In this document: positions 1-2,121 of the stretch, piece after piece
Layout: every line of letters starts with the position of its first letter
Numbering within the stretch: position 1 is the stretch's first letter
Virus record (IMG/VR): IMGVR_UViG_2554235127_000007
Direction: 5' to 3' (one strand)
DNA length: 6,958 nucleotides
Source of the DNA: a virus
Lineage: Duplodnaviria; Heunggongvirae; Uroviricota; Caudoviricetes
Notes under the pieces: model-generated
The model's database searches: none
Told to the model about the DNA's origin: nothing
Seen by the model: only the letters and a program-made list of their open reading frames with translations
Made by a program: the position numbers and the translations under genes

Positions 1-282
1 CTACCTTTGCCTCTTGCCGCCATTTAACCGGAAGGCGTTACCGTTCGGTTGCGCTATCCCCATGCGGTGTTGCGTTTCGGTAACAGCTTTATGCAGGTCG
101 CCAAAGTCCTCAACCTTCACGGGCGGGCGCTTCACGTTCTCCAGACACGTTTCACGGCGGCGCTTTATCCATTCCCGATCATCGTCCTCGGTGCATAACA
201 GCATGACTTCCATCCATCGTGCGGCAGCTCTCCGGTATAGCCCTTTTGACTCCAGCTCTTCAGCTTTCCTGTCCCTTATCAT
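1..282 (-). CDS. Small regulator, PerC-family-like (93 aa), transcribed divergently from the RHH gene
   Basis: ATG at 282-280 and TAG at 3-1, so the gene is complete and ends exactly at the window edge. AGAGG Shine-Dalgarno about 6 nt upstream on the minus strand (complement of 288-292). The protein contains GLYRRAAARWMEV followed by KRRRETC and RPP, which I recall as the signature of PerC/Pch-type small activators; this is from memory and not searched. The opposite-strand ORF 14-376 is low-complexity (Ser/Arg-rich) and is rejected. Confidence 0.55.
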   Translation of the reverse strand: MIRDRKAEELESKGLYRRAAARWMEVMLLCTEDDDREWIKRRRETCLENVKRPPVKVEDFGDLHKAVTETQHRMGIAQPNGNAFRLNGGKRQR

Positions 283-302
283 TTCTGCCTCTCAGATTAT
301 TT

Positions 303-340
303 TGAACCAACACAGCCCAGCTCTGAACCAACAACACAGC
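303..340. promoter_or_regulatory. Two direct repeats, TGAACCAACACAGC (303-316) and TGAACCAACAACACAGC (324-340), in the divergent intergenic region
   Basis: Read directly from the sequence. The two copies differ by a 3-nt AAC insertion and start 21 bp apart, roughly two helical turns. They lie between the divergent PerC-like and RHH genes, upstream of the PerC-like start. A regulatory role is inference. Confidence 0.3.
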
Positions 341-386
341 GATAGCTTTGTGATTGGTCCGTTATTTTCTGGCTGATATTTGAGCG

Positions 387-416
387 TATAACAGTGTTAT
401 ACAGTGGTATACTGTA
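387..416. promoter_or_regulatory. Three tandem 10-bp operator-like repeats (TATAACAGTG, TTATACAGTG, GTATACTGTA) overlapping an extended -10-like element TGGTATACT (405-413)
   Basis: Read directly: three back-to-back 10-mers at 387-396, 397-406 and 407-416, with ACAGT/ACTGT inverted arms and a GTATAC palindrome. TGnTATACT fits an extended -10 promoter about 22 nt upstream of the ATG at 435. RHH repressors typically bind short tandem or inverted repeats overlapping promoters (established knowledge); that this is their site is inference. Confidence 0.4.
405..413 (+). promoter_or_regulatory. Candidate extended -10 promoter element (TGGTATACT) for the RHH gene
   Basis: The TGn-TATACT arrangement read in the sequence matches the extended -10 consensus TGnTATAAT at 5 of 6 hexamer positions. 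It is embedded in the tandem repeats about 22 nt upstream of ATG 435. No convincing -35 was found, which is tolerated for extended -10 promoters (established knowledge). Activity is inference. Confidence 0.3.
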
Positions 417-434
417 TGGATATTACTCACTGAT

Positions 435-890
435 ATGGTCTTTGCAATGAGCAAATCTAATCTGATCGCGTTCCGCATCCCATCTGAATTGCAGGATGAG
501 TTTAATCGGTCTGTTCTCGCTTCTGGAGGAGATAAAACCTCCTGGCTTGTTGATGCGATTCGCATGAAGCTGGGGCAGCCGGAAAAGTCTATTGATTCAC
601 GAATGCTTGGGCTGGTGGAGCGCATGGAAAAAGCCGCTGCGTCGCTTATTGCCGGAAAGCCGAACATCCCACCAAAACCATATAACGAAACGGCAGTTAT
701 AAAGATCATTGCCGATACCATCCAACAGGGATTTGATAATGGGCGTGTGATAGCTGAACGGATCAATGAAGCAGGCTATCAAACAAAAGCTGGTAAAGCG
801 TGGGATAAAGATATTTACAGCGCGTGGAAGCGTCAGGGAAGCAATGCTGAAAAGTTAAAAGCGGTGATTGATTGTAAGGTCAGCGTATAA
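435..890 (+). CDS. Ribbon-helix-helix (Arc/Mnt-type) DNA-binding protein with a C-terminal extension, about 147-151 aa; putative Mnt-like regulator of the accessory island
   Basis: The N-terminus NLIAFRIPSELQDEFNRSVLASGGDKTSWLVDAIRMKL matches the Arc/Mnt RHH pattern (beta-strand FRIP, helix A, G-x-x-T-S turn, helix B); compare the P22 Mnt and Arc N-termini as I remember them. The C-terminal segment IAERINEAGYQTKAGKAWDKDIY resembles the LN..G..T..G..W motif of recombinase-type DNA-binding domains. ATG at 435 and an alternative ATG at 447 (MSKSNL...); neither has a strong Shine-Dalgarno. Stop TAA at 888-890. The antisense ORFs 362-766 and 597-782 are rejected. Confidence 0.8.
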   Translation: MVFAMSKSNLIAFRIPSELQDEFNRSVLASGGDKTSWLVDAIRMKLGQPEKSIDSRMLGLVERMEKAAASLIAGKPNIPPKPYNETAVIKIIADTIQQGFDNGRVIAERINEAGYQTKAGKAWDKDIYSAWKRQGSNAEKLKAVIDCKVSV

Positions 891-969
891 ACATGAGTGC
901 CCATTGGAAAGCTGCTTGGGCCAATACCTTTATACACCAGCAGGTGGTGACGATAGGTGAGGATCAGGA

Positions 970-1191
970 ATGAAAGGCAGAACGCCACACATTGAACATC
1001 AAGCCAACCACTTCTCGGATGTTCGCAATGAGATGATTGCCATTCGCGGTGATATGCACGGCTTGGAGCGTCGAATTATTGATAAGATTGATGAAAATAG
1101 AGATAAGGCCAGTGAAAATCAAAAGTGGATCATCGGCCTGTTGATTTTATCAATTCTTATCCCGCTACTTATCGCATTGGTCACAAAATGA
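970..1191 (+). CDS. Small coiled-coil protein with a C-terminal transmembrane anchor (73 aa), XhlA-like architecture; probably co-transcribed with the RHH gene
   Basis: ATG at 970 is preceded by a good Shine-Dalgarno (GGTGAGGA at 956-963, 6-nt spacer). Stop TGA at 1189-1191. The protein has a charged, helical N-terminal region and ends with NQKWIIGLLILSILIPLLIALVTK, a single C-terminal transmembrane helix. This resembles the small phage XhlA-type hemolysin family as I remember it; family assignment is from memory. Confidence 0.7.
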   Translation: MKGRTPHIEHQANHFSDVRNEMIAIRGDMHGLERRIIDKIDENRDKASENQKWIIGLLILSILIPLLIALVTK

Positions 1192-1217
1192 ATATCCAAT
1201 GTGTATGCTGTCGATGC

Positions 1218-1546
1218 TACGCGCGCGTACTTGTCGCAAAATATCAGGCAAAGGCCAGATTCAGAACGTCGTGATAACCACCAGCACAACATGAGATGTC
1301 ATGTAACGCGATTTATCACACCAGATACATGTGATTGGTGTACCCGCATAAAACATTGTCATAGCGCGTCCTGTGCGCATATACGCCGATAATCAACACA
1401 TCGCCACCACTCTGACTTATGTAGAGAACAGTTTTATGGTACTCCCCTCCATCGTGCGCGTACTTGTCTCGAAATTGGTGTTTTGCTGTGGCAGTGATAT
1501 CAGAAAAATCTTCCTGTTTCACATAAAGCGGATATGCGCGTACTGT
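1218..1546. repeat. Four same-orientation copies of the GC-rich motif GCGCGT(A/C)CT(T)GT(C) in an apparently non-coding stretch, with a perfect 12-bp palindrome TACGCGCGCGTA at 1218-1229
   Basis: Read directly. Copies at 1223-1235 (GCGCGTACTTGTC), 1364-1374 (GCGCGTCCTGT), 1456-1468 (GCGCGTACTTGTC) and 1536-1546 (GCGCGTACTGT). The first and third copies extend to about 22 bp with 20 of 22 identical (GCGCGCGTACTTGTCGCAAAAT vs GTGCGCGTACTTGTCTCGAAAT). The copies fall in different reading frames, so this is a DNA-level repeat, not a peptide repeat. Confidence 0.5.
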
Positions 1547-1660
1547 AACGACCCCATCAACGGGGGCGGATTTGAAATCCCGACCCAAGCTATGTACCAA
1601 ATGCCATGTCTTGGATATATGATGATTGCCATTCTAAACAACGCTAAAGGGAGGGTTGGT

Positions 1661-2059
1661 GTGAATCAATTGAAGCGATTGGTTGTCTCCGGTTTATTAT
1701 TTGCTTCTTTTGGAGCGAACGCTGAATGCTGGATTATTGGTGATCTGAAAGGACAAGAAGCCTCAAGTTCAGATGGGTATAACTATAAGTTATCATCTAT
1801 ACCAGATACCTTTCATTTGGTAATAAGTAAAGAGAAGGCGGATCTTATCTTGGCAAAAGATGGTATAGGTGGAGGTATTGATTATTACCCGCTATCTCCG
1901 AATGCCATGATGGGAAGAAGCTATCGAGATGGTCAACTGACGCTTGTCACATGGGCAATCTCAAATGACGGAAAAGTGATCCATACACGAACAATTAGTC
2001 GATCTGATATAGGCTCATTTACAGGCTCATTTGTCGGCAATGTTAAAGGCAAGTGTTAA
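1661..2059 (+). CDS. Secreted or periplasmic protein of unknown function (132 aa precursor, about 111 aa mature), AT-rich moron; candidate superinfection-exclusion or immunity-type protein
   Basis: GTG start at 1661 is preceded by a strong Shine-Dalgarno (AAGGGAGGG at 1647-1655, 5-nt spacer). The N-terminus MNQLKRLVVSGLLFASFGANA-ECW is a canonical Sec signal peptide with an AxA cleavage site and no lipobox. The mature protein has Cys at position 2 and as the last residue, and looks beta-rich. Sampled 60-nt stretches are about 35-40% GC versus roughly 43-62% in the ejection genes. The 288-nt extension upstream to GTG 1373 in the ORF track lacks a ribosome-binding site and is probably not translated. 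Stop TAA at 2057-2059. Confidence 0.65.
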   Translation: MNQLKRLVVSGLLFASFGANAECWIIGDLKGQEASSSDGYNYKLSSIPDTFHLVISKEKADLILAKDGIGGGIDYYPLSPNAMMGRSYRDGQLTLVTWAISNDGKVIHTRTISRSDIGSFTGSFVGNVKGKC

Positions 2060-2121
2060 TGTTCATAACTATTTGAAAAAAATACTAATTACTATTATAA
2101 CCAACCATCCATGGCCATCTG

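Follow-up and report, generated by a model that had tools for sequence, protein, structure and literature searches.

A Hex-family secreted protein, a candidate phage-exclusion factor, in the sieA-equivalent slot of an EcCIMP1-like satellite

We analysed a stretch of 6,958 nucleotides (nt) from the Caudoviricetes record IMGVR_UViG_2554235127_000007, referred to here as the window, and in particular its positions 1–2120, the island, which adjoin genes for P22-type DNA-delivery proteins. The island is probably the distal accessory and regulatory arm of a phage-inducible chromosomal island (PICI) of the EcCIMP1 family, with a Hex-family periplasmic exclusion protein in the slot equivalent to that of P22 sieA. 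The structural statements made below, taken jointly, are very likely to be correct. For the function of the Hex-like protein as a periplasmic exclusion protein against P22-like phages, which is read from sequence, we see about an even chance. An earlier note on the same DNA had assigned the island to a P22-like prophage, between gene 16 and the tailspike or ant genes. The element that carries it in complete bacterial genomes has a different organisation.

The element around the island is an EcCIMP1-like satellite

Parts of the island were found in 636 of 5426 complete Escherichia coli genomes, the set to which all genome counts in this text refer, and at least 80% of positions 1–2120, the PerC gene included, was present in 42 of them. 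A megablast search with the island gave no match among 50,697 phage genomes. The surrounding element in the complete genomes, with copies identical or nearly identical to the island, has a size of about 18–20 kb. Its integrase, AlpA and primase genes lie outside the window and were read from complete-genome copies that hold the island at 97–100% identity. The element begins with an integrase gene, followed by genes for an AlpA-type regulator, AntA/B, DUF4222, Ash and a primase of the TOPRIM/DUF927 or DUF5906 type. A gene encoding a protein of 53 amino acids (aa), four delivery genes, a variable region and the PerC gene come next, and beyond PerC either the element ends or a few further cargo genes follow. 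Neither capsid nor terminase, tail needle or tailspike genes occur in the complete-genome elements, in which virion-type genes are limited to the gp14-7-20-16 set. The element is thereby placed among the PICIs by its integrase/AlpA/primase backbone, by the 53-aa gene ahead of the delivery genes and by the PerC gene beyond the variable region.

The window itself contains one part of this backbone. Upstream of its DUF2824 gene, related copies have the 53-aa gene and the primase gene and no tail needle gene, and the 53-aa gene is conserved beside primase or PerC genes in other genera as well. In the P22-like phage Kapi1, a tail needle knob gene precedes the DUF2824-like gene at the place where the window has the 53-aa gene. 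The position of the 53-aa gene before DUF2824 therefore marks, inside the window, a PICI configuration rather than a P22-like phage.

EcCIMP1, a PICI of E. coli MP1, was shown experimentally to excise and to be transferred only with Kapi1 (Pick, Stadel and Raivio, ISME J 2025, PMC11773190), and helper-dependent excision, replication and transfer have been shown for this pair only (PMC11773190). The window shares with EcCIMP1 the order of the 53-aa gene, DUF2824, gp7, gp20, the gp16-type gene, the variable region and PerC. The DNA of the EcCIMP1 PerC gene, EcCIMP1_025, is 99.7% identical to the window over positions 1–300, the segment 1211–1586 is common to both (84% blastn identity, with a 53-nt deletion in the window copy), and sister copies share the insertion site near thrW/yagU. 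EcCIMP1 differs from the window by a 232-aa lipoprotein gene and alpA_1 between gp16 and PerC, by the absence of the gene for a protein of the ribbon-helix-helix (RHH) type, of a 73-aa gene and of the Hex homologue, and by its gp16-type gene, which is a 906-aa form with an SLT domain. The published account annotates the EcCIMP1 delivery genes merely as candidate packaging genes (PMC11773190). It also reports that EcCIMP1 strengthens the superinfection immunity of Kapi1 lysogens, and that PADLOC and DefenseFinder detected no known defence system in EcCIMP1 (PMC11773190). The exchange of cargo genes described below bears on why satellites of this type add superinfection immunity despite this lack of a recognised system.

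That the window derives from a P22-like prophage, in which sieA and immI were replaced by one new RHH/XhlA-like/secreted cassette between gene 16 and the tailspike gene, is highly improbable in the light of these data. The strand logic is that of P22 mnt and sieA, the gp14-7-20-16 genes are present, and real P22-like prophages do have mnt, a further gene and a Hex-like gene at this place. However, every complete-genome copy resides in a satellite without capsid, terminase and tailspike genes, the RHH gene belongs to the backbone across genera with unrelated neighbours, and the proposed XhlA membership of the 73-aa protein failed. Moreover, the four island genes do not form a single cassette and assort independently, as their counts show: the RHH gene is present in 360 genomes, the 73-aa gene in 169 and the Hex-like gene in 126, compared to the 42 genomes with at least 80% of the island.

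Several copies of the element deviate from the common arrangement. E. coli HB37 (L002; L numbers denote compared loci) carries two satellite copies in tandem beside dinD (14797–32290 and from 32966), each with the same island, and in one of them the gp16-type gene is frameshifted. In the clinical E. coli lineage Ec-050 (H7, H13–H17), an IS1A is inserted inside the island. At L068:5352–9833, in one genome, the 73-aa gene is followed not by the delivery cassette but by a P22-like prophage's early genes for Dam, another PerC, Cro and cI; this arrangement may represent a satellite–prophage recombinant. In L067, L068, L069 and L072 (about 2228–3120), an insertion to the left of PerC comprises a SocA/Panacea-domain gene and a partner, and phage Emek has a similar DUF4065 pair between its Hex homologue and mnt (L055:2759–3632), which suggests an exchange of cargo between the satellite and P22-like phages.

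A Hex homologue with conserved export features

The secreted protein encoded next to gene 16 does have known relatives, namely phage 434 Hex and its family. As judged from sequence, it is homologous over its full length to phage 434 Hex, Sf6 gp38 and Emek orf129. Searches with tblastn found homologues in phages 434, lambda imm434, HK446, HK633, Sf6 (gene 38), Sf101, Emek and ST-35 with 30–33% identity (E 5e-15 to 6e-13); the protein matched phrog_2651 (1.3e-22), and 200 representative clusters of homologues were obtained at E up to 0.001. No useful match came from Pfam, NCBIfam or PADLOC, and Pfam has no family for Hex proteins. The homologue in phage 434 is the gene annotated as 'repressor protection protein' directly after cI, i.e. 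hex, and the 158-aa open reading frame (ORF) of the Hex paper corresponds to L056:1938–2414.

An alignment of 40 Hex-family sequences revealed a hydrophobic N-terminal signal and an AxA-type site followed by [EDQN]-C-W. Cys23, Gly31 and Trp98 are invariant, and Cys132 at the C-terminus is near-invariant. The AlphaFold2 (AF2) model of the window protein (pLDDT 88.9) is all-beta after the signal helix and forms a beta-barrel. With 434 Hex, Sf6 gp38 and Emek orf129 the window protein has in common the signal peptide, the xCW start of the mature chain, the C-terminal cysteine and the size, and like other members of the family it occupies a moron position expressed from a prophage. The window copy differs from 434 Hex in being satellite-borne and in its place, which is next to gene 16 and after an RHH-led unit instead of after cI. 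The protein adds a new member to the Hex family, and its carrier is new as well.

The genomic context of the homologues falls into several types. Emek, a true P22-like phage, has its Hex homologue immediately after gene 16, on the other strand, and further on come mnt, arc, ant and the tailspike gene. P22-like prophages have the order mnt, a Rap1a-like gene, a Hex-like gene and the end of gene 16; with these prophages as comparison, the RHH-led unit reading towards gene 16, as described in the earlier note, was confirmed. In 434-type and Enterobacter prophages the Hex homologue follows cI, and in Aeromonas it is found in small integrative islands. The Rap1a-family protein encoded between mnt and the Hex homologue in the P22-like prophages (L063–L065:3650–3985; Pfam 9.7e-15) is folded like a type VI secretion immunity protein.

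A phenotype has been reported for the homologue of phage 434. According to the account in PMC3564112, which cites Susskind and Botstein 1980, lambda imm434 lysogens of Salmonella exclude P22, an ability that hex mutants lack. From this phenotype, the family features and the position beside gene 16, we infer the following course for the island protein, from expression through location to phenotype and target. The RHH-led unit would be expressed from the resident island through an inward-reading conserved promoter, and the Hex-like protein would be exported by means of its Sec signal peptide. A disulfide between the first and the last cysteine of the mature chain would close a small periplasmic beta-barrel. 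The protein might then block P22-like DNA delivery, probably by interfering with the gp7/gp20/gp16 conduit, and so provide superinfection exclusion to the cell carrying the island.

A cytoplasmic function has been proposed for Hex itself, and the island protein could by analogy be a lysogeny stabiliser which inhibits RecA-stimulated cleavage of 434- and P22-type repressors and thereby dampens induction of the helper prophage. A Hex fragment indeed protected the 434 and P22 repressors in vitro, and hex mutants induce more often (PMC3564112); the helper of EcCIMP1-type PICIs is P22-like (PMC11773190). Yet the whole family keeps the signal peptide, the AxA motif and the two terminal cysteines of the mature chain, and many homologues are located beside gene 16 and not beside a repressor gene. 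The active fragment, furthermore, was produced in the cytoplasm as a protein lacking the signal peptide, with a start that coincides exactly with the predicted cleavage site. Its N-terminus, Glu43, is the residue directly after the predicted site between ANS and ECW in phage 434 Hex, which fits processing at this site and implies that the RecA assays of the 2013 study used a protein produced in the wrong compartment. In addition, EcCIMP1 left post-induction titres of Kapi1 and a cI reporter unchanged (PMC11773190), though EcCIMP1 is without a Hex gene. We consider a role as cytoplasmic lysogeny stabiliser quite unlikely. The family-wide export signal conflicts with an action of Hex on RecA and repressor in the cytoplasm, and the published mechanism of phage 434 Hex is thereby called into question.

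The proposed exclusion function can be extended to the entire family. Hex-family proteins would then form an unrecognised class of periplasmic superinfection-exclusion factors which jam the gp7/gp20/gp16 conduit of P22-like phages from the periplasm, comparable to SieA in the inner membrane, and which EcCIMP1-type satellites pair with their own sets of ejection proteins or, in other genera, with solo tape measure proteins. This generalisation is speculative and rather unlikely to hold in full. If it is true, the combination of an exclusion gene with an own ejection set could let satellite particles enter cells that exclude the helper.

Exchangeable cargo beside the DNA-delivery genes

Pairwise comparison of the window with eight variants revealed two cargo slots with clean swap breakpoints, slot 1 at about 857–1211 and slot 2 at 1664–2105. 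In slot 1, alternatives to the window's 73-aa gene are AbiD (PADLOC 7e-58) or an ImmA/IrrE capP-like gene accompanied by a membrane-protein gene, and in some variants this replacement removes the RHH gene too. In slot 2, the Hex-like gene is exactly replaced in 103 genomes by a gene for a 204-aa multi-pass membrane protein of the SieA type. This protein has a weak precomputed Pfam match to SIEA and resembles P22 SieA in BLASTP (8e-8, 29% identity), with the RYPGEA motif in common. A further occupant of slot 2 is the 232-aa lipoprotein gene of EcCIMP1, which is present in 76 genomes. PADLOC gave no match for any protein encoded in positions 1–2120, and its matches were limited to the allelic genes in other variants. 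The presence of AbiD and of the SieA-like protein in allelic variants bears out the suggestion that a hotspot of exclusion or anti-phage genes lies beyond gene 16. The G+C content of 0.37–0.42 over the two cargo genes, compared to about 0.5 in the ejection-protein genes, is as expected for a moron.

A similar exchange of genes is apparent in other genera. There, the RHH gene is separated from the 53-aa gene or primase by anything from 140 nt to 9.6 kb, and AbiD, Shosta, SoFic, PDC-M18 and PsyrA occur in the interval from the RHH gene to the primase side. This variety of defence genes fits the published rule of defence hotspots at PICI ends, for which PMC11364771 cites Fillol-Salom et al. 2022; P4-like satellites likewise have defence hotspots (Rousset et al. 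2022, PMC9122126). As in these elements, the island is a variable far end of a satellite at which anti-phage genes are swapped between conserved flanks. It differs from them in that it adjoins satellite-borne genes for ejection proteins and in that the slot proximal to gene 16 holds envelope proteins, either periplasmic, inner-membrane or lipoproteins. Defence hotspots at satellite ends are already an established kind of locus, and the satellite family to which the window belongs has been described before. The present comparison adds a single-gene candidate for exclusion of P22-like phages and defines the swap points of an exclusion hotspot found in roughly one in ten complete E. coli genomes.

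The slot occupants also bear on the question whether the cargo protects against phages at all. It might consist of host-fitness or virulence morons without an anti-phage role, with PerC tuning regulons of the LEE (enterocyte effacement locus) type and with the barrel and the small membrane protein altering the envelope, for instance by ligand binding or by inhibition of a host or foreign peptidoglycan hydrolase. We regard this as unlikely, as the genes for AbiD and the SieA-like protein, which can occupy the same slots, are of a recognised anti-phage kind, an exclusion phenotype has been reported for the 434 homologue (as related in PMC3564112), and the Hex family is confined to moron positions of prophages and satellites.

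P22 offers a direct comparison for both ends of the unit. P22 SieA is likewise encoded directly after gene 16 on the opposite strand, and it blocks DNA entry via gp16 and gp20 from the inner membrane (Leavitt et al., mBio 2024, PMC10883804). However, it is an inner-membrane protein with three helices, whereas the window protein is a beta-barrel with a signal peptide and without detectable sequence relation to SieA. With P22 immI the window shares an RHH gene that points towards gene 16 and diverges from a neighbouring gene; arc, ant and sar are absent and the divergent partner is PerC. The statement that the island has no classical SieA, Arc or Ant was upheld: Pfam detected neither Arc nor Ant nor Mnt in the window, and Rfam gave no match.

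The delivery cassette flanks the cargo and consists of genes for gp16-, gp20-, gp7- and gp14-like proteins (Table 1). At the same position in related loci, the 701-aa products have the precomputed assignment PF26808 (Phage_P22_gp16), and the gp16-type gene is 94–100% identical where compared. Within the 701-aa type, no co-variation of gp16 alleles with the neighbouring exclusion gene was detected. Relatives in Tatumella, Pantoea, Symbiopectobacterium and Chimaeribacter have a solo tape measure protein of 1050–1250 aa (TMP_3, 1e-42 to 3e-57) encoded after the 53-aa gene, in place of the P22-type set. The alternation of these two solutions suggests that the satellite family carries DNA-delivery proteins matched to the type of helper. 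Our literature searches found no description of satellites that carry ejection proteins or tape measure proteins.

The 73-aa protein of slot 1 had been described as XhlA-like. It gave no Pfam match at E up to 0.1, and this designation was abandoned: the only related signal is a weak match to the holin family phrog_689 (0.0037), and the better match (3.2e-11) is to phrog_6324, a family of unknown function. Neither PADLOC nor NCBIfam returned a meaningful match, and a search for phage relatives yielded three weak matches in Klebsiella phages only. That AbiD can replace the 73-aa gene is the sole functional lead for this protein.

One might suppose that a toxin-antitoxin or abortive-infection pair is encoded here, with the RHH protein as antitoxin or repressor and the 73-aa protein as a small membrane-depolarising toxin. 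In favour of this, 79 nt separate the two neighbouring genes, which share a strand; the 73-aa protein, with its tail anchor, resembles small membrane toxins and holins, and the slot can hold AbiD. On the other hand, the RHH protein is 63–78% identical in other genera that have no 73-aa gene, the RHH gene persists where AbiD or the ImmA/IrrE pair replaces the 73-aa gene, and neither PADLOC nor Pfam lends support. As the RHH gene persists without it, the RHH protein is not a dedicated partner of the 73-aa protein, and such a pair is decidedly improbable.

Regulators, conserved segment and feature coordinates

The ORFs and the strand logic of positions 1–2120 proved real at the coordinates first proposed, except that alignment of homologues moved the start of the RHH gene from 435 to 447. 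The coordinates of all features are compiled in Table 1.

Table 1. Coordinates and assignment of features in the window and in related loci
Feature	Position	Strand	Assignment or remark
PerC-family regulator, 93 aa	1-282	-	Pfam PF06069 1.7e-30, 105.6 bits; phrog_994
Two TGAACCAAC copies, 21 nt apart	303-333 (copies at 303, 324)	+	repeat analysis
Predicted RHH promoter/operator	386-413	+	tandem 10-nt repeats GTATAACAGT, GTTATACAGT at 386-405, abutting extended -10 box TGGTATACT (405-413)
RHH-type gene, 147 aa	447-890	+	start ATG 447 by homologue alignment
Tail-anchored membrane protein, 73 aa	970-1191	+	hydropathy: hydrophilic N-terminal 50 residues, one C-terminal transmembrane helix
Conserved 415-nt segment without intact gene	1211-1625	.	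in every E. coli variant compared, EcCIMP1 included
20-nt motif GCGCGTACTTGTCGCAAAAT	1223-1242		second copy, 2 mismatches, at 1456-1475
Hex-family secreted protein, 132 aa	1661-2059	+	likely start GTG 1661 behind GGGAGG Shine-Dalgarno sequence
Predicted signal peptide	1661-1723 (residues 1-21)	+	predicted cleavage between ANA and ECW; mature chain 111 residues
AT-rich convergence gap	2060-2121	.	+ strand unit meets - strand ejection-protein operon; no intrinsic terminator found by simple scan
P22-type DNA-delivery cassette	2122-6780	-	flanks cargo; defines sieA-equivalent position
gp16-type, 701 aa	2122-4227	-	phrog_770 2.4e-155
gp20 (Inj_translocase)	4227-5648	-	Pfam 4.5e-58
gp7	5648-6325	-	Pfam P22_gp7 1.9e-72
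DUF2824 (gp14-like)	6319-6780	-	Pfam 2.3e-61
53-aa backbone protein	6797-6958	-	head of - strand operon; equals 53-aa gene of L002, L003, L050
Solo tape measure loci	L011:15579-19184, L016:12649-15786, L023:14471-18205, L026:13461-16868		

PerC and the RHH protein are backbone regulators of the satellite family and are found across Enterobacterales. The PerC-like regulator named in the earlier note was recovered by Pfam with a score far above the PF06069 cut-off of 22.6 bits (Table 1). Its counterpart EcCIMP1_025 silenced LEE1 expression in Citrobacter rodentium (PMC11773190). Two PerC alleles occur: islands at the dinD site match the window at 199–300 only, and their PerC protein is 54% identical. 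Most variants have about 105 extra nt at position 300.

A survey of the RHH gene with one genome per species yielded 46 loci, including Klebsiella, Serratia, Pantoea, Erwinia, Providencia, Morganella and Photorhabdus, and most of them have the same primase-type backbone to the right of this gene. The protein search returned 365 clusters; no Pfam domain was present in any of the 120 listed, and among the clusters listed the closest relatives from other genera show the 63–78% identity given above. The RHH protein yielded no useful match in Pfam, NCBIfam or PADLOC, and a sequence search of the PDB with its profile gave no match. In its AF2 model, DSSP assigns no structure to an N-terminal segment; two short helices follow, and after them come a linker helix and a C-terminal helical domain modelled with confidence. 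The model is consistent with an N-terminal ribbon-helix-helix. The designation as Mnt-like stood in part: the two proteins align in register over the RHH motif, but the match is weak (hhalign probability 8%, pairwise BLASTP E about 0.01), and the window protein differs from Mnt by its length of 147 aa and a second helical domain.

Across genera, the DNA upstream of the RHH gene has a common organisation, in which two or three TGAACCAAC repeats are followed by tandem 10-nt repeats and then by an extended -10 box. Related islands of other genera have three TGAACCAAC copies at the place where the window has two. In the Pantoea/Erwinia clade both tandem repeats switch together from GTATAACA to TGTCTTACA. 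Simple scans for promoters and terminators found no more than expected by chance and did not list the proposed RHH promoter; its assignment is based on the conservation across genera. From the sequence of this conserved arrangement we infer a regulated promoter for the unit that runs into the cargo region.

Between the 73-aa gene and the gene for the secreted protein, the repeat-bearing non-coding stretch reported before was found again, with a direct repeat of 20–23 nt at 1220–1242 and 1453–1475. Segment 1211–1600 is the most widespread part of the island and occurs in 545 genomes. The window copy is without 53 nt that are present in other variants and that hold an AT-rich hairpin. The ORF at 1316–1600 on the minus strand was rejected as a gene, being the frameshifted and deleted remnant of a 123-aa ORF in which variants differ by 1-nt indels; Pfam, NCBIfam and PADLOC found nothing useful in it, and tblastx gave no coding signal in other genera. 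A structured RNA was also rejected, as no Rfam match was obtained and folding z-scores of -2.1 and -0.9 indicated no marked folding. The 20-nt motif recurs about 60 nt left of the window start, to the left of PerC (L001:11940), and is also present in islands of Serratia, Erwinia and Rosenbergiella, with all 30 of 30 occurrences in one orientation.

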